This document shows, piece after piece, positions 32,915 to 44,669 of a stretch of DNA of 64,000 nucleotides. Within the stretch, counting starts at the first letter, position 1; every line of letters begins with the position of its first letter. Location: NCBI GenBank assembly GCA_965248445.1, contig CBDFJG010000003.1, positions 32,001 to 96,000 on the forward strand, read 5' to 3'. The position numbers and the translations under genes are program-made. This stretch comes from Planctomycetota bacterium (GTDB lineage: Bacteria > Planctomycetota > JAJSAM01 > JAJVHW01). The notes under the pieces were generated by a model. The model was not told where the DNA came from and did not search any database. It saw only the letters and a list, made by a program, of their open reading frames with translations.

Positions 32915-33987
32915 GCCCGGGTCACGTCTGGTCGGCAGCACCCCCGGCGGGATGGAACGCGGGCCTGAACGAGTCCACGGGCACCAAGGCGTTCCTGCGT
33001 CCGGCCTGGTTCGCCGGGTGGTCCGCCGCGTTCGGTGGGGAGGGCAACTGGACGGGTTCGACGCAGTACCTGTCCGTTCTGTCCGGCGACCGCCTGGTGG
33101 GCGCACTGGCAGTTGCGTCGCAGACGGTGGGCAGGCTTCGCTTCGCCTCTCTCGGCGGCTACTACCAGCCGTTTCGCGGGATCGTCGCGTTCGACGACGT
33201 ACCGGGCACAACGGCACAGATGGTGGAGGGACTCGGCGAGCTCACCGGATTCCACGGCGTGCGCATGGGTCCCGTGCCGCAGGACGACGGGGATCTCGTT
33301 GCACTTGTTGCGTCCCTCCGAACTGCAGGATGGAGGGTGATCGAGCGGCGAGTCGCAACGGGTTTCGTGCTCGACGTTCCGGCGACGGTGGAAGAGTTCG
33401 ATGGCGGACTGTCCAAGAAGCGGAGGGCCAAACTTCGCAACTACTGGAACAAGATGTGCAAGGTCGCCGAGACCGAACTCGTTCACCACACGGGTGGGAA
33501 CGCGGATGACTGGGTGCGGGTGTTCGACGATCTCGGAACCGTCGAGATGGCATCGTGGGTGGCCGAGTCAGGCGACCCCCGGTTCGCCGGTGACCGCAAC
33601 AAGATCTTTTGGACGCATCTCGCCCACGACGCGTGGATGCGCGAGGCGATGCACGCGTGGGTCGTCTACCACGGCGGGACTCCGGTCAGCTTCTGCTTCG
33701 CGCTCGACGCGGGCGACACGAGATTTGTCATGGCCAACAGCTACGACGCCCGGGTCGCGGAGTTCCGCACCGGTACGAAGCTCTACCACGAGGTGATCCG
33801 CGACGCGGTCGCAAGGGGGCGTGCACGCGTGGACATCGGGATGGGGGACTCCGGCTACAAGGCGCAGTGGGGCGCTGAGGCCGGCAGCGAACTGATCGAT
33901 ATCGTCGCGTTCCCACCGACTCTGAAGGGGCGTCTCGTCCACCTCGCCGCGCGTGCGAGACTGGCGATCGACGCCCGCCGCAATTGA
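32911..33987 (+). CDS. GNAT acyltransferase (CelD/BcsL-like)
   Basis: LSKKRRAKLR, SYDARVAEFRTG, DIGMGDSGYKAQW; ATGA overlap with the upstream gene. Confidence 0.85.
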   Translation: MSPGHVWSAAPPAGWNAGLNESTGTKAFLRPAWFAGWSAAFGGEGNWTGSTQYLSVLSGDRLVGALAVASQTVGRLRFASLGGYYQPFRGIVAFDDVPGTTAQMVEGLGELTGFHGVRMGPVPQDDGDLVALVASLRTAGWRVIERRVATGFVLDVPATVEEFDGGLSKKRRAKLRNYWNKMCKVAETELVHHTGGNADDWVRVFDDLGTVEMASWVAESGDPRFAGDRNKIFWTHLAHDAWMREAMHAWVVYHGGTPVSFCFALDAGDTRFVMANSYDARVAEFRTGTKLYHEVIRDAVARGRARVDIGMGDSGYKAQWGAEAGSELIDIVAFPPTLKGRLVHLAARARLAIDARRN

Positions 33988-34049
33988 GCCGCCTCGAACC
34001 GGTCCGACCGGCTCGCCACGCGGCAGCTCGCCGGACTCATAGGAACTAC

Positions 34050-36071
34050 GTGCCCACGTCATCCCGAATCAGCCGGATCGCCGTCACTGTGTCGCTCGCC
34101 GTCGCCGTGTCCCTGACCGCGTGCTCCGAGCCCGCCGGGGCGCAGGGCAGTTTGTTTCCTGCCGTACAGCTTCCGAGCACGCCGTTGGCGCTGGAACCCG
34201 TCTCGGCCTGGCGGCGCCCGCGCCACGAGGTCATCGTCTGGACCTACACCGACGATGCGCGGCGGCCACGGCTCCCGCGCGTCATCGAGGAACTCGGCGC
34301 GCGCGGCCTGTCGATCGGCCTCGAAACCGATCCGGCGCCGTTCGCGAAGGCCGGGCTCTCATGGTATGCCGGCCACGCTGCGGGGAAGGGCTCCTTGGAT
34401 CTGAGAGAGCGGGACCTGCGCGGACCGTGGGAGCGATTCGCGGCGGACGTGGCAACGCCCTGGCCGGCCGAGGCGGCACGCGCGCGTCCCCACTGCCTGC
34501 GCAGCGAGGATGTTCGCGCGGGGATGATGCGAAGAACGCTCGAGAGCGCGAAGCGCGCGCGGGCCTCGGGCGCGGTGGCGATCTCGCTCGCGGACGAGCC
34601 CTCCATGTCGGTGCGTGCCAACCCGACCGACTGGTGCCTGTGTGACGACTGCGTGGTCGCCTTCCGCCGTGCGACGCGCGACCGACTCGACGGGGACCTG
34701 CAAGCGCTGAACGCACAGTGGGGCATGTCGTACTCGCGGTGGGACGACGTCCGGCCGTGGACGACGACTCAGATGCGCCGACGTTGTCTGCCTCGCGATC
34801 CGGAAGATTGGAATCTCGCTCCGTGGATGGCAACGCGCAGGTTCCAGGACGCGACGTTCGAAGAGACGCTGCGGGTTCTGACGGACGCCGCGCGCACGGC
34901 GGCGCCGGACGTTCCAGTGGGCGTGACGGGGACGCAGGCGCCGGGCGCGTTCGGCGGTTTCGACTACCGGAGGCTCACCGGCGTCTGCGACTTCCTGGAG
35001 CCGTACGACATCGGGCTCGCGCTGCCCGTCGCGCGCGATCTCGGCGGCGCCCGGACGCTGCTCGCACAGACCGTGTTCCCCGCCGACGAGAGCCGCGGAC
35101 TCGAAAAGCTCCGCCTGTGGCGCGGTGTCGCGCGCGGCGCGCGCATGTCGATCGTCTGGTCAAGCCAGGACGCGTTCGATTACCCCGACGGCGCGAGCCC
35201 GCGACTGTCCGCCTACGGCAAGCGCATCGCGCCGGAACTCCGGCTCCTCTCCGCGGATGGAGGGCTCGGCGCGCGTCTCGCGGCCGCGCGTCCGCTCGAC
35301 GGCGCCGTGCGCATCGTGGTCTCGCAGCCGTCGCTCGCGGTGCGGTGGATGCTCGACAGCCGCGTCGACAAGGACACGTGGCCGCGGCGCTTCGGGAGCT
35401 ATGAGGCGTCGAACAGCAGTGCCATCGCTTCTCGCGACGCGGCGTGGCGCGCCCTGGCTCAACGGGCGCCGCGCTTCGTCGATGCCCGCGACCTTTCGGA
35501 GCCCGGCGCGCTCGACGGCGTGCGGCTCGTGGTCCTGCCTGACGTGCTCTGTCTCTCCCCTGACGAAGTCCGCGCTCTTCGCACGTTCGCCGAGCAAGGC
35601 GGCAGCGTGGTTGCAGACATCTCCCCGGGCGGGTTCGACACGGAGGGACGCGCAAGCAAGCGCGCAACGGGCGAGTCGGTGGACGCAGTGCTCGACCCGC
35701 GCTTCGAGAGTCTCGCTGACCTGACGGAGAAGCTCCTCGGACCGCCTCTCCTGCGGGCGGAACCGGCCGGCGGGGGAGTCCCGCTCGAACTGGCGCTGTT
35801 CGAGAACGGTACCGAGCGCCTGGTGGTGGTCGTCCCGCTGCACGACGTCGAGATCGTCCCCGATGCATCGGCCGACGCGACTCTTCCGGCGGCCGGGGAA
35901 CTCGCACGGTTCTCGTTCGGTGACGGCAAGAGCCGGACGGTGCGTAACGAACGCCGGGGCGCCGTGGTCTGCTTCGCGGCCGGCTTCGAGTTCACCGTTC
36001 CGCCCGAGGGCGGCGTCGTCTTCAGCTGGAGAGAGAGCGACGCGAGCGACGCCCCGCCCGAAGAGCGCTGA
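34050..36071 (+). CDS. GH42-like glycoside hydrolase, probable lipoprotein
   Basis: Lipobox SLTAC; LADEP, CLCDDC, ALNAQWG, DFLEPYD; trimerisation-like domain (LVVLP...FAEQGG). Confidence 0.7.
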   Translation: MPTSSRISRIAVTVSLAVAVSLTACSEPAGAQGSLFPAVQLPSTPLALEPVSAWRRPRHEVIVWTYTDDARRPRLPRVIEELGARGLSIGLETDPAPFAKAGLSWYAGHAAGKGSLDLRERDLRGPWERFAADVATPWPAEAARARPHCLRSEDVRAGMMRRTLESAKRARASGAVAISLADEPSMSVRANPTDWCLCDDCVVAFRRATRDRLDGDLQALNAQWGMSYSRWDDVRPWTTTQMRRRCLPRDPEDWNLAPWMATRRFQDATFEETLRVLTDAARTAAPDVPVGVTGTQAPGAFGGFDYRRLTGVCDFLEPYDIGLALPVARDLGGARTLLAQTVFPADESRGLEKLRLWRGVARGARMSIVWSSQDAFDYPDGASPRLSAYGKRIAPELRLLSADGGLGARLAAARPLDGAVRIVVSQPSLAVRWMLDSRVDKDTWPRRFGSYEASNSSAIASRDAAWRALAQRAPRFVDARDLSEPGALDGVRLVVLPDVLCLSPDEVRALRTFAEQGGSVVADISPGGFDTEGRASKRATGESVDAVLDPRFESLADLTEKLLGPPLLRAEPAGGGVPLELALFENGTERLVVVVPLHDVEIVPDASADATLPAAGELARFSFGDGKSRTVRNERRGAVVCFAAGFEFTVPPEGGVVFSWRESDASDAPPEER

Positions 36072-36139
36072 CCGGGGCACGAGGCTCACGGGAACATGCG
36101 GCGGCTGTCGCCGGTTACGGCAGACTGAGGACGACGACC

Positions 36140-36328
36140 GTGACGATGAAGACCACCCTGACGCTCCTGGCAGCCGCCGCAGGCGGTGCGGCCTTCGGCT
36201 GGTACCAGTCCGCCTGCGGGACCTGAGGGATCGCCGCTGCCCTGGAGGGGTGGCAGGCGTCGGCGCTCTACGCGACTGTGTTCGCCGGCGTTGCCGGGAT
36301 CGCCTTCCGCGGGCCTTCTGCCGGCTGA
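36140..36328 (+). CDS. Candidate small two-helix membrane selenoprotein (CxxU; in-frame TGA at 36224-36226)
   Basis: GAGGA 8 nt before GTG; MTMKTTLTLLAAAAGGAAFGWYQSA-CGT(UGA)-GIAAALEGWQASALYATVFAGVAGIAFRGPSAG*; hairpin follows the UGA. Confidence 0.65.
36229..36261 (+). promoter_or_regulatory. Putative bacterial SECIS hairpin
   Basis: CGCC-GCTGCCC-TGGAG-GGGTGGC-A-GGCG; loop GG lies 17 nt after the UGA. Confidence 0.6.
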
Positions 36329-36348
36329 ATCGGCTGCCGGCTGATTCG

Positions 36349-36527
36349 TCAGTCGCCCACGAGGACCTTGAAGCCAGGTTGGCCCTCGACCACCCGGATG
36401 TGTCGGCCGACAGGGATGTCGGCGAGTTCCTGGACGACTCCCGACGGCCAGTGAATCGTGAGGCGGGTCACCATCGTTGCCTGTCCGAGACCGAAGCGCA
36501 CGACGCTCGCCTGCGTGACGCTGAAGT
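36349..36527 (-). pseudogene. 3' remnant of an ASPIC/UnbV (CRTAC1-like) gene cut by IS66
   Basis: FS.....VRFGLG...V..LTIHWPSG.VQEL...GRHIRVVEG. Confidence 0.8.
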
Positions 36528-38027
36528 GTAACCGTTCACCCCTTGACAGCGTGTGAGCCTCAGCGTGCGAGGGGCAGCGGGACCATGACGGGCGGGTCGG
36601 CGCCGGTGAGGTGCGCGGCGACCGAGTCGGCGAGGAAGTCGAAGACTTGGTCGCCACGGCGTCGCAGCGTGGCCGCGGCGGTCAACACGCGCTCGGCGAA
36701 GCGGAGTCCGCGAGCGGACTGGCTTCCGAAGGAGCCCTTGCGCCAGAGCACCGCTTTGCGGACCGCGCGCTCGGCGGCGTTGTTCGTCGGACTCACGTCC
36801 TGGGTCCGCGCATAGGTGAAGAGGGCGACCACGCGGGGGCGCAGATGGTTGGCCAGAGCCGAGTCGTCGTTCGCGATCAGTCGCTCGAGCCGTCCGCGCA
36901 GCACAGCGGCTTCGCCTTGCAGCCGGTCACGGTCGCCGTGCTCACCGAAGAGCCGGTAGCTGCGCATGACCGACTGCGCGATCATGACGCCCTTGTTGCC
37001 GAAGCGGCGATGTTCTCGCGGGCCTTCGGCCAGCGCACGGAAGGCGCGCTCGATGTGCGCCCAGCAGAGCTGGCGGCGGGCAAGTGGGTGTGACTCGTAG
37101 GCACCCATCCGGTCGCTGATCACCGTGCCACCGAAGCGCCGCCCGATCAGCCGCCCTTTCGCCTTGGCACTGCGGCGGCGATCGATCCCGAAGGCTGTGG
37201 CGTGCTCGCTCTCCGCCGCCCACAGCCAGCACACCCGGCCCCGTTCCTTCCACGACGTCTCGTCCACGTTGGCTCGCAGCGACGTGCGGACTGCCCCGAG
37301 GGCTTCGAGGTACGACGAGTGCAGAGCGTCACTGAGCCGACGCTCACAGTCGCTGATCTTGCCCAGCGACATCTTCACACCGAAGATCTCACCGAGCAGC
37401 CGCTGCGTCTCCCGCACGCTCACGCGGTACACGCCGCGCAGCGCGCCGGCAAGTGTGGTCAGCCGCGGACCGAAGGCCCCGGTCGGCACGCCATCGGGCA
37501 GGACCGCCGTCGTGACCGCACGACAGCGCCGGCACCGCGCCTTGTGCAGCCGGTGCTCCCGCACCGTGACGAGCACGCGCGGGAGCACCGTCACCTGGTG
37601 CCGGTACGGATCGCCGATGCCCTGCTCGAGATCGTCGTGTCCGCACGCGTCGCAGCGGTCGGGACGGTGCTCCTTGGTCTCATCGACGTTGGACGGATCC
37701 ACCAGCTCGCGCGCCGTGCCCTCATGGCCCGGCTGTCCGCCCTGCTTGCGACCGCTACGCGGCCTTCGGCCGCGACGGCGCTTGGACCACGCCGGGTCCG
37801 ACGACGGAGGCCTCGAGCTGTTGCGGGAGTCACGCTTCAGACGCGACTCGAGCTCGTCGATGCGGCGCAGATGCTTCGCTTCGCGACGCTCCAGCTCCTC
37901 GATCCAGGCCAGAAGGCCCTCGACCATCGCCCGCAGATCCTCGTCCTGCCGCTCGCCCACAACATCTTGATCGACCGATGGCCGAACGATCTGGATCCTG
38001 GCTCGCGACGAAGGGGTGAACGGTTAC
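36528..38027 (-). mobile_element. IS66-family element, single ORF (ISBst12-like), copy 1, 1500 bp
   Basis: Perfect 17-bp TIR GTAACCGTTCACCCCTT; no target duplication. Confidence 0.95.
36560..37960 (-). CDS. IS66-family transposase (TnpC)
   Basis: [15 protein letters not shown], zinc-finger Cys pairs, [26 protein letters not shown]. Confidence 0.95.
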   Translation of the reverse strand: MGERQDEDLRAMVEGLLAWIEELERREAKHLRRIDELESRLKRDSRNSSRPPSSDPAWSKRRRGRRPRSGRKQGGQPGHEGTARELVDPSNVDETKEHRPDRCDACGHDDLEQGIGDPYRHQVTVLPRVLVTVREHRLHKARCRRCRAVTTAVLPDGVPTGAFGPRLTTLAGALRGVYRVSVRETQRLLGEIFGVKMSLGKISDCERRLSDALHSSYLEALGAVRTSLRANVDETSWKERGRVCWLWAAESEHATAFGIDRRRSAKAKGRLIGRRFGGTVISDRMGAYESHPLARRQLCWAHIERAFRALAEGPREHRRFGNKGVMIAQSVMRSYRLFGEHGDRDRLQGEAAVLRGRLERLIANDDSALANHLRPRVVALFTYARTQDVSPTNNAAERAVRKAVLWRKGSFGSQSARGLRFAERVLTAAATLRRRGDQVFDFLADSVAAHLTGADPPVMVPLPLAR

Positions 38028-38936
38028 CCGTGCTCGGGGTTGCCACGGCAACGCCGTTCCAGGCGGACACGACGACGTCCCGCTTCGCCAGTGCGTCGAC
38101 CGCTCCCACGTTCACGGTGTTCGTGTCGGGATCGATCGAGGTGACGTAGCGCGGCACCCCGGTCGCGAGCCCCGACGGGCCGGCCGTCAGTCCCCGTCGC
38201 TGACCGATGGTGACCGTGCCGACGCCTCCGTGCTGCCCGATCACCGCTCCCGAGGCGTCATCCACGATGGGACCCGGGACCATCGACTCGGGTCTCCGGG
38301 CGCCCACGCGCCCACGACGGCGCGGTAGTCCCCGTCCGGCACGAAGCAGATCTCCATGCTCTCCGGCTTCTCGGCCACGGGCAGGCCGAACTGCTCCGCG
38401 TGGGCCCGTACTTCGGGCTTCGTCAGGTCCCCGAGAGGAAACAGGCTCCGCGCGATCTGGGCCTGGGACAGGGGAAACAGCACGTACGTCTGGTCCTTCG
38501 TCTCGTCCCGCGCCCGGGCGAGCGCGAACCGCTCTCCGACCCGCTCGCGGCGGGCGTAGTGCCCGGTGGCGACCGCGTCCGCGCCGAGTGCGTCGGCGAA
38601 CTCGAGGAGGCGGCCGAATTTGAGGTCCCGATTGCAGACGATGCACGGGTTCGGGGTCCGTCCGGCGGCGTACTCAGCTGCGAACCCATCGATCAGCCGG
38701 TCGAACTCAGCCTCGTGGTCGAGCGCGTAGAACGGGACGCCGAGAATCTTGGCCACGCGGGAGGCGTCGGCGGCGTCATCGATCCCGCAGCACCCCTGGC
38801 GAGCCCGCTTCGCGGCCGGGCCGGCAGCGATGCCGTTCCGCATGAACACACCCGTCACATCGTGCCCGTCGGCCCGCAGGAGGGCCGCCGCCACGGAGCT
38901 GTCCACCCCCCCGCTCATGGCCACCACGACGTGCAT
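38028..38936 (-). pseudogene. mnmA: tRNA 2-thiouridylase MnmA, frameshifted and 3'-truncated by IS66
   Basis: AMSGGVDSS, TPNPCIVCN, ATGHY, KDQTY, TIGQRRGL; 8-bp duplication at 38301-38316; C-terminal domain absent. Confidence 0.92.
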
Positions 38937-43169: not shown

Positions 43170-44669
43170 GTAACCGTTCACCCCTTGACAGCGTGTGAGC
43201 CTCAGCGTGCGACGGGCAGCGGGACCATGACGGGCGGGTCGGCGCCGGTGAGGTGCGCGGCGACCGAGTCGGCGAGGAAGTCGAAGACTTGGTCGCCACG
43301 GCGTCGCAGCGTGGCCGCGGCGGTCAACACGCGCTCGGCGAAGCGGAGTCCGCGAGCGGACTGGCTTCCGAAGGAGCCCTTGCGCCAGAGCACCGCTTTG
43401 CGGACCGCGCGCTCGGCGGCGTTGTTCGTCGGACTCACGTCCTGGGTCCGCGCATAGGTGAAGAGGGCGACCACGCGGGGGCGCAGATGGTTGGCCAGAG
43501 CCGAGTCGTCGTTCGCGATCAGTCGCTCGAGCCGTCCGCGCAGCACAGCGGCTTCGCCTTGCAGCCGGTCACGGTCGCCGTGCTCACCGAAGAGCCGGTA
43601 GCTGCGCATGACCGACTGCGCGATCATGACGCCCTTGTTGCCGAAGCGGCGATGTCCTCGCGGGCCTTCGGCCAGCGCACGGAAGGCGCGCTCGATGTGC
43701 GCCCAGCAGAGCTGGCGGCGGGCAAGTGGGTGTGACTCGTAGGCACCCATCCGGTCGCTGATCACCGTGCCACCGAAGCGCCGCCCGATCAGCCGCCCTT
43801 TCGCCTTGGCACTGCGGCGGCGATCGATCCCGAAGGCTGTGGCGTGCTCGCTCTCCGCCGCCCACAGCCAGCACACCCGGCCCCGCTCCTTCCACGACGT
43901 CTCGTCCACGTTGGCTCGCAGCGACGTGCGGACTGCCCCGAGGGCTTCGAGGTACGACGAGTGCAGAGCGTCACTGAGCCGACGCTCACAGTCGCTGATC
44001 TTGCCCAGCGACATCTTCACACCGAAGATCTCACCGAGCAGCCGCTGCGTCTCCCGCACGCTCACGCGGTACACGCCGCGCAGCGCGCCGGCAAGTGTGG
44101 TCAGCCGCGGACCGAAGGCCCCGGTCGGCACGCCATCGGGCAGGACCGCCGTCGTGACCGCACGACAGCGCCGGCACCGCGCCTTGTGCAGCCGGTGCTC
44201 CCGCACCGTGACGAGCACGCGCGGGAGCACCGTCACCTGGTGCCGGTACGGATCGCCGATGCCCTGCTCGAGATCGTCGTGTCCGCACGCGTCGCAGAGG
44301 TCGGGACGGTGCTCCTTGGTCTCATCGACGTTGGACGGATCCACCAGCTCGCGCGCCGTGCCCTCATGGCCCGGCTGTCCGCCCTGCTGGCGACCGCTAC
44401 GCGGCCTTCGGCCGCGACGGCGCTTGGACCACGCCGGGTCCGACGACGGAGGCCTCGAGCTGTTGCGGGAGTCACGCTTCAGACGCGACTCGAGCTCGTC
44501 GATGCGGCGCAGATGCTTCGCTTCGCGACGCTCCAGCTCCTCGATCCAGGCCAGAAGGCCCTCGACCATCGCCCGCAGATCCTCGTCCTGCCGCTCGCCC
44601 ACAACCTCTTGATCGACCGATGGCCGAACGATCTGGATCCTGGCTCGCGACGAAGGGGTGAACGGTTAC
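43170..44669 (-). mobile_element. IS66-family element, copy 2, 1500 bp
   Basis: Same TIRs; a few SNPs relative to copy 1; no target duplication. Confidence 0.95.
43202..44602 (-). CDS. IS66-family transposase (TnpC)
   Basis: Near-identical to 36560..37960 (4 amino-acid differences seen). Confidence 0.95.

Follow-up and report, generated by a model that had tools for sequence, protein, structure and literature searches.

An unannotated candidate selenoprotein gene for a 60-residue, predicted two-helix CxxU protein in a Planctomycetota genome, probably a divergent relative of DUF6132

The window, that is, the whole stretch of 64,000 nucleotides of Planctomycetota DNA that was analysed (contig CBDFJG010000003.1), contains on its forward strand at 36146-36328 an ATG-initiated frame of 60 codons that has a TGA at codon 27 and ends at a second TGA (36326-36328), and judging from the sequence comparisons laid out below this is with high probability a real, unannotated selenoprotein gene. 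The internal TGA would be read as selenocysteine (Sec27), placing a Cys-Gly-Thr-Sec (CxxU) motif in the loop between two predicted helices. If so, the known bacterial selenoproteins, most of whose characterized representatives have a thioredoxin-like fold according to a 2026 review (PMC13188914), would gain a membrane protein of very small size. Genes of this type are invisible to standard annotation, as every genuine database match to this one stops at the TGA.

The gene, its internal TGA and its orthologues

All of the coordinates given in the earlier note hold on re-reading. A Shine-Dalgarno-like GAGGA (36127-36131) precedes a GTG at 36140 and the ATG at 36146, the motif TGC-GGG-ACC-TGA occupies 36215-36226, and 33 further codons lie between the internal and the terminal TGA; counted from the GTG, the frame comprises 62 codons. 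The predicted helix 1, which is Gly/Ala-rich and likely membrane-embedded, corresponds to residues 2-23 (36149-36214), and the predicted helix 2, which requires readthrough of the UGA, to residues 35-54 (36248-36307). A GH42-like gene (33984-36071) lies upstream on the same strand, 68 nt ahead of the GTG, and downstream is a convergent ASPIC/UnbV fragment adjoining an IS66 element. Neither a sigma-70 promoter nor an intrinsic terminator was found in 35900-36600. Positions 35900-36556 are also covered by two Logan contigs, both from a single sample that is possibly the source sample, and these agree with the window at every letter.

The Sec machinery, whose absence the earlier note held would speak against the proposal, is present in the genome, which carries selA (502 bits), selB (336 bits), selD (386 bits) and tRNA-Sec (68 bits), each above cut-off, and in which selD has an in-frame TGA of its own. 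TGA is also the main stop codon of this genome, terminating 1411 of the 2170 open frames of at least 500 codons, and among its 57 tRNAs the only one with a TCA anticodon is tRNA-Sec, a Trp tRNA with that anticodon being absent. Reassignment of TGA to Trp is therefore unlikely.

Orthologues were found in two of 60 relatives (G006 and G007, of one genus in the same family), at 43-45% identity and with TGA at the same codon (L022:1495-1683, plus strand, and L023:1426-1662, minus strand), and both genomes carry selA and selB. A ribosome-binding site lies upstream of all three genes (GAGGAG and GGGAGG 5' of the starts in the orthologues), and C-x-T-TGA and a Gly-Trp before helix 2 are likewise kept in all three. 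A lack of conservation downstream of the UGA, which would have counted against readthrough, is not what was seen. The half after the TGA aligns over 33 codons without a gap in the three genes; any two of them share 9-15 identical residues there, and their mismatches lie mostly at third codon positions (15/13/20, 14/13/19 and 13/11/20 at positions 1/2/3 in the three pairs).

A HMMER search of 1.84 billion proteins gave five matches, of which four are genuine, all of them peptides of 27-41 residues that end at C-x-T; one is the G007 gene itself and three are new, while the fifth match, a 2155-residue repeat protein, was dropped. The 40-residue P0003 matches the half after the TGA and agrees with P0006, one of the C-x-T peptides, in its source and in the number and length of its contigs, and the two are likely halves of one gene. 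The branch so far comprises three genes and three further truncated peptides. With the same-codon TGA in the orthologues and the database proteins cut at that point, the feature stands above chance. No full-length form of the CxxU branch with Cys or Trp at this position was found among the 1.84 billion proteins, and for lack of such a Cys form the classic pairing of Cys and Sec homologues rests on the wider DUF6132 family described below.

The gene is patchily distributed among Sec users, since selA occurs in all 16 genomes of the same order (G001-G016) and the CxxU gene in only two of these. In the same family it was not found in five of the seven genomes having selA. An alignment search of 401 genomes of the phylum (15 candidates scored per genome) gave no further CxxU orthologue, ten weak matches being rejected on inspection. 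Single-sequence searches with the window protein returned no Pfam or NCBIfam match of note and none in a word-indexed protein search, and its comparison with genome contigs yielded 599 stretches, none of them confirmed. A metagenome scan with A1 had a single match (L056), which is of the antisense type and was put down to chance. The regions next to DUF4388 in G001-G005 and the gap between pyk and DUF4388 in G000 showed no remnant of the gene, two of these loci ending close to the gene, and four pattern matches in these genomes were also judged to be chance.

The IS66-family element next to the locus (36528-38030, with a transposase ORF at 36560-37960 on the minus strand) abuts the ASPIC/UnbV gene fragment, and a second copy lies at 43170-44669. 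The genome holds 43 near-full-length copies at >99% identity, a number and identity that suggest recent expansion. On the minus strand at 37837-38936 there is an mnmA-like gene (tRNA_Me_trans match, 231 aa) with an apparent continuation in another frame near 38250-38300, a break that is possibly a frameshift or an assembly indel.

Relation to DUF6132 and Sec use in that family

The likeness to DUF6132 (PF19628) that the earlier note pointed to survives as a distant relationship, in that a comparison of profiles recovers it, while the scores fall short of the Pfam cut-off and the motif is CxxU in place of the C-x4-C/U of the family. When the three CxxU genes were compared by hhalign with 19 DUF6132 proteins of the phylum, a probability of 95.4, an E-value of 1.8e-8 and a score of ∼37.8-43 were obtained, above all of 201 decoys, namely the reversed profile at 11.3, 100 shuffles of columns that reached at most 19.4, and 100 shuffles of blocks that averaged 15.9 and peaked at 33.0. 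For two members, the G006 orthologue at 19.3 bits and the peptide P0005 at 16.0 bits, no Pfam family scores better than DUF6132, with both values below its gathering cut-off of 23.2 bits, and the window protein itself has no PF19628 match in Pfam. A profile built from 55 DUF6132 proteins scores the three CxxU proteins at only 5.0 (window), 12.6 and 20.5 bits, and in a six-frame scan with this profile the window gene is outside the top 10 of its own genome. NCBIfam release 20.0 holds no family for the three CxxU proteins and none above cut-off for five Sec-type DUF6132 proteins. Because the profile-profile match exceeds the decoys but the scores lie below the cut-off, the gene is called a probable offshoot of DUF6132 and is not filed as a member.

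DUF6132 proteins of the Cys type resemble the window protein in having ∼55-60 residues, two Gly-rich helices (predicted in the window protein) and, in the loop, a Cys pair ahead of a conserved Trp, but the window protein has CxxU with Sec at the second position and no Pro before the Trp. With the Sec type (C-x-G-S-T-U-G) it has in common a TGA at the second Cys, the T-U-G context and an RNA core of the form CCC-UGG-N2-3-GGG, although the CxxU branch has two residues fewer between Cys and Sec. In terms of spacing, all three genes combine CxxU with Gly-Trp, as opposed to C-x4-C/U with Pro-Trp in the family, where the aligned column at the TGA position is invariantly Cys or Sec. In a tree of 72 rows the three genes form a separate clade (100/98) on a long branch (1.23), placed at 86/92 beside a Sec-type DUF6132 that is fused to a thioredoxin domain (L064:1486-2001, plus strand, in G023), their nearest tree neighbour, weakly supported; as this placement has a support of 86/92 only, the tree does not fix the origin of the branch. 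A canonical DUF6132 gene was not found in G000, nor in G006 or G007 among the candidates scored. From these comparisons it is quite probable that the CxxU gene belongs to a branch that diverged within DUF6132 and shortened C-x4-U to CxxU.

Within DUF6132 itself, a PF19628 search gave 27 places in 23 of the 401 genomes of the phylum, eight of which were dropped as chance, and the 19 that were kept comprise 12 genes with C-x4-C and seven with a TGA at the second Cys. All six genomes with the TGA type have selA and selB, and in seven of the ten genomes with only the Cys type neither was seen. A DNA pattern scan of 185,579 genomes returned at least 120 matches, of which 80 were listed. Among the matches listed, 43 loci were dropped as chance and 37 are DUF6132 genes of the TGA type (36 of them new), whose sources include Desulfuromonadales, Dehalococcoidia, Nitrospiraceae, Latescibacterota, Victivallales and Kiritimatiellae, and selA is present in 31 of 35 of their genomes, the four misses being assemblies of 1.7-2.3 Mb. 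With L136, a duplicate of L080, counted once, the Sec type totals at least 43 genes (7 + 36) in several phyla, in genomes that are related, such that these counts are not independent events. The TGA of DUF6132 alternates with Cys codons and tracks selA. Trp at the site, another outcome that would have pointed to a plain nonsense mutation, occurs in none of the retained DUF6132-type genes, the homologues having TGA or Cys.

Two loci deserve separate mention. In L071:1489-1656 (plus strand, in G092) the TGA is at the second position and Arg stands where the first Cys would be; such a form, with Sec alone, suggests that Sec is the essential residue. Genome G032, an assembly with 6% contamination, holds four DUF6132 genes (L057, L080, L082 and L083), two with Sec, one with Cys and one a Cys-type thioredoxin fusion.

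DUF6132 does not appear in Table 1 of a 2026 compilation of 119 prokaryotic selenoprotein families (PMC13188914), a table that includes families from Haft and Tolstoy 2025, nor in the part of the new-family list of deep-Sep that was examined (PMC12013277), and a full-text literature search for DUF6132, PF19628 and related topics found no paper on the family. The CxxU branch probably descends from this family, a widespread user of Sec that the inventory of 119 families lacks.

The candidate SECIS hairpin

Taken alone, the hairpin that follows the internal UGA is weak evidence for Sec. The earlier note had pointed to a SECIS-like hairpin, and a fold at ∼36232-36259 with UGG at 36243-36245 and its GG 17 nt after the UGA was indeed obtained, but the argument from the single sequence is weaker than was stated there. 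The folding energy is unremarkable (z = −0.67, with 49 of 200 shuffles folding equally well), and a loose bSECIS filter, which is our own approximation of a published model (Fig. 2 legend of PMC13188914), is passed by the window TGA and also by 141 of 300 random TGAs (47%) of this genome of 69% GC. The filter accepts all three CxxU genes, and among the matches listed 40 of 44 Sec rows (the L136 duplicate being counted here) and nine of 12 Cys genes, and was set aside as a means of separating Sec from Cys genes.

What makes the hairpin informative is its core, CCC-UGG-AG-GGG at 36240-36250. Among the matches listed, a core of the type CCC-UGG-N2-3-GGG that begins 13-16 nt downstream of the UGA is present in 37 of 43 Sec-type and two of 12 Cys-type DUF6132 genes, a motif that was defined after the data had been seen; for 36 of the 43 Sec genes, its TGG had already been required by the pattern used to find them. 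Likewise among the matches listed, 33 of 43 Sec genes retain all five base pairs of the core vs none of 12 Cys genes; at the paired codons, CCC for Pro is used by 39 of 43 vs four of 12 and GGG for Gly by 38 of 43 vs four of 12, while GGG makes up 17% of other Gly codons. In the genome of the window, the core follows only four of 106,500 TGA triplets, including the one discussed here. It is present in the window and G007 genes and absent from that of G006, which has a first hairpin with another loop and a further candidate at +35. The concern of the earlier note that the hairpin might not be conserved is thus answered by the recurrence of the core in Sec-type relatives.

The core occupies a different codon frame in the two groups. 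In the family it is made up of the codons for Pro-Trp-x-Gly, while in the window gene it runs across Ala-Leu-Glu-Gly in another frame, 2 nt nearer to the UGA and with a loop that is 1 nt shorter. A compensated double frameshift, or convergence under selection by SelB, would explain this shift. The CxxU branch would illustrate that a gene can retain Sec through changes in its motif spacing and in the codon frame of the SECIS, a point that matters for the evolution of SelB signals within coding sequence. In the window gene, SelB carrying Sec-tRNA would very probably bind the hairpin 16-17 nt downstream of the UGA and insert Sec27.

Two other readings of the TGA have to be weighed against Sec insertion. 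It could be a true stop, which would leave a 26-residue peptide or a pseudogene, or a variant code could assign it to Trp or Cys. Gene callers do terminate the protein there, and both the unexceptional energy of the hairpin and the failure to find the gene in most selA-containing genomes of the family fit a stop, but retention of the same TGA in three genomes that have diverged to 43-45% identity, with the downstream half open and conserved, and the alternation of TGA with Cys codons in step with selA in the wider family make this very unlikely; a variant code is further opposed by the role of TGA as the main stop and the lack of a Trp tRNA with a TCA anticodon. Still less probable is a selenium-sensing leader ORF in which readthrough would control a downstream gene and the peptide would be incidental. 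The frame is very short, as a leader would be, and one Sec-type DUF6132 gene (L135, on CAMZLY010000034.1) precedes selA by 52 nt and has the same orientation, but in the window, G006 and G007 the next downstream gene is on the opposite strand, and the conservation of the protein sequence and the fusion of relatives to thioredoxin also speak against a leader. Sec insertion at codon 27 is hence the preferred reading.

Topology, neighbourhoods and possible function

An AlphaFold2 model computed from a 58-row alignment that included DUF6132 places helices at residues 2-23, 29-32 and 35-54 and Cys24 to Sec27 in a loop, although its confidence is weak (mean pLDDT 69.5, pTM 0.35; pLDDT ∼79 for residues 1-20), and Foldseek found no match for it in the PDB. 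The best 19-residue Kyte-Doolittle means of 1.0 and 1.3 are moderate for both helices, a marginal hydropathy that is expected of Gly/Ala-rich helices, and canonical members of DUF6132 have sub-threshold Gly-zipper matches. All three CxxU proteins have Lys/Arg at both termini and none in the loop, which is acidic, and an excess of Lys/Arg at the termini over the loop is seen in 33 of 42 Sec proteins among the matches listed and in 11 of 14 Bacteroidota proteins. The thioredoxin fusions have this excess in three of six, with a mean Lys/Arg count of 1.7 in the loop vs 0.7 and 0.8 in the flanks. The positive-inside rule is an established guide to membrane topology, and by this rule the window protein would rather likely have both termini in the cytoplasm and an outward-facing loop. 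The topology is not settled, however, because a C-terminal thioredoxin would lie opposite the loop if both helices span the membrane, and because of the excess of Lys/Arg in the loop of the fusions; these may differ from the window protein in loop orientation.

The indications of function are indirect and come from relatives. A thioredoxin domain is fused to six of the 19 DUF6132 genes of the phylum, one of them of the Sec type, the assignment being based on profile matches for two and on visible CxxC thioredoxin motifs for four. In Bacteroidota, 14 Cys-type DUF6132 genes were found in 13 of 61 genomes, and within 1.5 kb of them, in raw counts uncorrected for background, thioredoxin-fold genes occur at six of 14 loci and rhodanese genes at six of 14, and if YeeE/YedE and disulfide reductases are included, 10 of 14 loci have at least one such gene in this range. 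Several of the TlpA-like and rhodanese neighbours begin with a hydrophobic segment. No conserved neighbour of the Sec-type genes emerged, the genes adjoining them being mixed (one ORF on each side, 91 of 102 scanned), and the same one-ORF scan of the three CxxU genes showed no redox neighbours (GH42-like and ASPIC/UnbV; pyruvate kinase and DUF4388).

It is on the thioredoxin fusions and the rhodanese and thioredoxin neighbours of relatives that a role as a membrane thiol/persulfide relay is based, and the somewhat favored reading is that the 60-residue, predicted two-helix CxxU selenoprotein would be anchored in the membrane and serve there as a thiol/persulfide redox relay, its partners being thioredoxin-fold proteins and rhodaneses. 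In such a cycle the Sec selenolate would attack a disulfide, persulfide or oxidant, Cys24 would resolve the Sec27 adduct to give a selenenylsulfide, and a thioredoxin-fold protein would re-reduce it, a sequence of steps that is favored only slightly. CcdA, the DsbD beta-domain and DsbB are membrane thiol relays of 4-8 helices with a redox Cys pair and thioredoxin-fold partners. The window protein would have in common with them a membrane redox Cys pair (Cys/Sec here) and partners of this kind, but with their larger number of helices and no detectable homology they serve as an analogy only. Since the use of Sec marks a residue as catalytic or ligand-binding, it also provides a testable active site for the uncharacterized DUF6132.

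A more ambitious reading would combine all of this. DUF6132 proteins would be the smallest known membrane redox or sulfane-sulfur relays, oligomerizing as 60-residue Gly-zipper hairpins through which thioredoxins and rhodaneses exchange electrons or persulfide, either across the membrane or at it, and the CxxU branch would have arisen from the Sec type by a local double frameshift (loss of 2 nt, then of 1 nt) that rewrote the peptide and kept the SECIS core, such that the RNA signal would have outlived the stretch of protein encoded over it. As a whole this is doubtful.

Two alternatives to a DUF6132-type redox relay accept that the gene encodes a selenoprotein. According to one, the CxxU proteins are an independent family of small membrane selenoproteins whose likeness to DUF6132 merely reflects a shared Gly-rich helical hairpin, in which case the thioredoxin and rhodanese context would not apply. 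The scores of all three full-length members, under the PF19628 cut-off and at 5.0-20.5 bits against the family profile, are what this would predict, as are the other motif spacing, the missing Pro-Trp and the long branch, but it is made unlikely by an hhalign score above all 201 decoys, by two members, the G006 orthologue and P0005, matching DUF6132 better than any other Pfam family, by the T-U-G context and RNA core held in common with Sec-type DUF6132, and by the failure to find a canonical DUF6132 gene in G000, or in G006 and G007 among the candidates scored. The other alternative starts from the motif itself. CxxC and CxxU motifs bind soft metals, and isolated neighbours include an ArsR regulator, MntP and CorA. 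The protein could on this basis be a membrane peptide that binds or handles soft metals (Hg, Cu, Ag) with CxxU as the ligand site, as proposed for the putative mercuric transport selenoprotein, a MerT-like protein (PF02411) with C/SxxU (Table 1 of PMC13188914), which is likewise a bacterial membrane selenoprotein with a CxxU-type motif. However, the window protein matches neither PF02411 nor any other metal-transport family, no mercury-resistance context was seen for the CxxU genes, mer or cop genes are absent among the scanned neighbours, and the partners that recur are thioredoxin-fold and rhodanese proteins, all of which leaves metal handling an improbable role and the thiol/persulfide relay the preferred one.

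Some Sec-type DUF6132 genes have neighbours that recur locally. In four Desulfuromonadales-type loci (L095, L097, L098 and L117) a gene for a DUF1451 zinc-ribbon protein lies 3' of the Sec-type gene in all four scanned, and in two from Chloroflexota (L086 and L088) the Sec-type gene directly follows a gene for a CCG-domain protein resembling heterodisulfide reductase.
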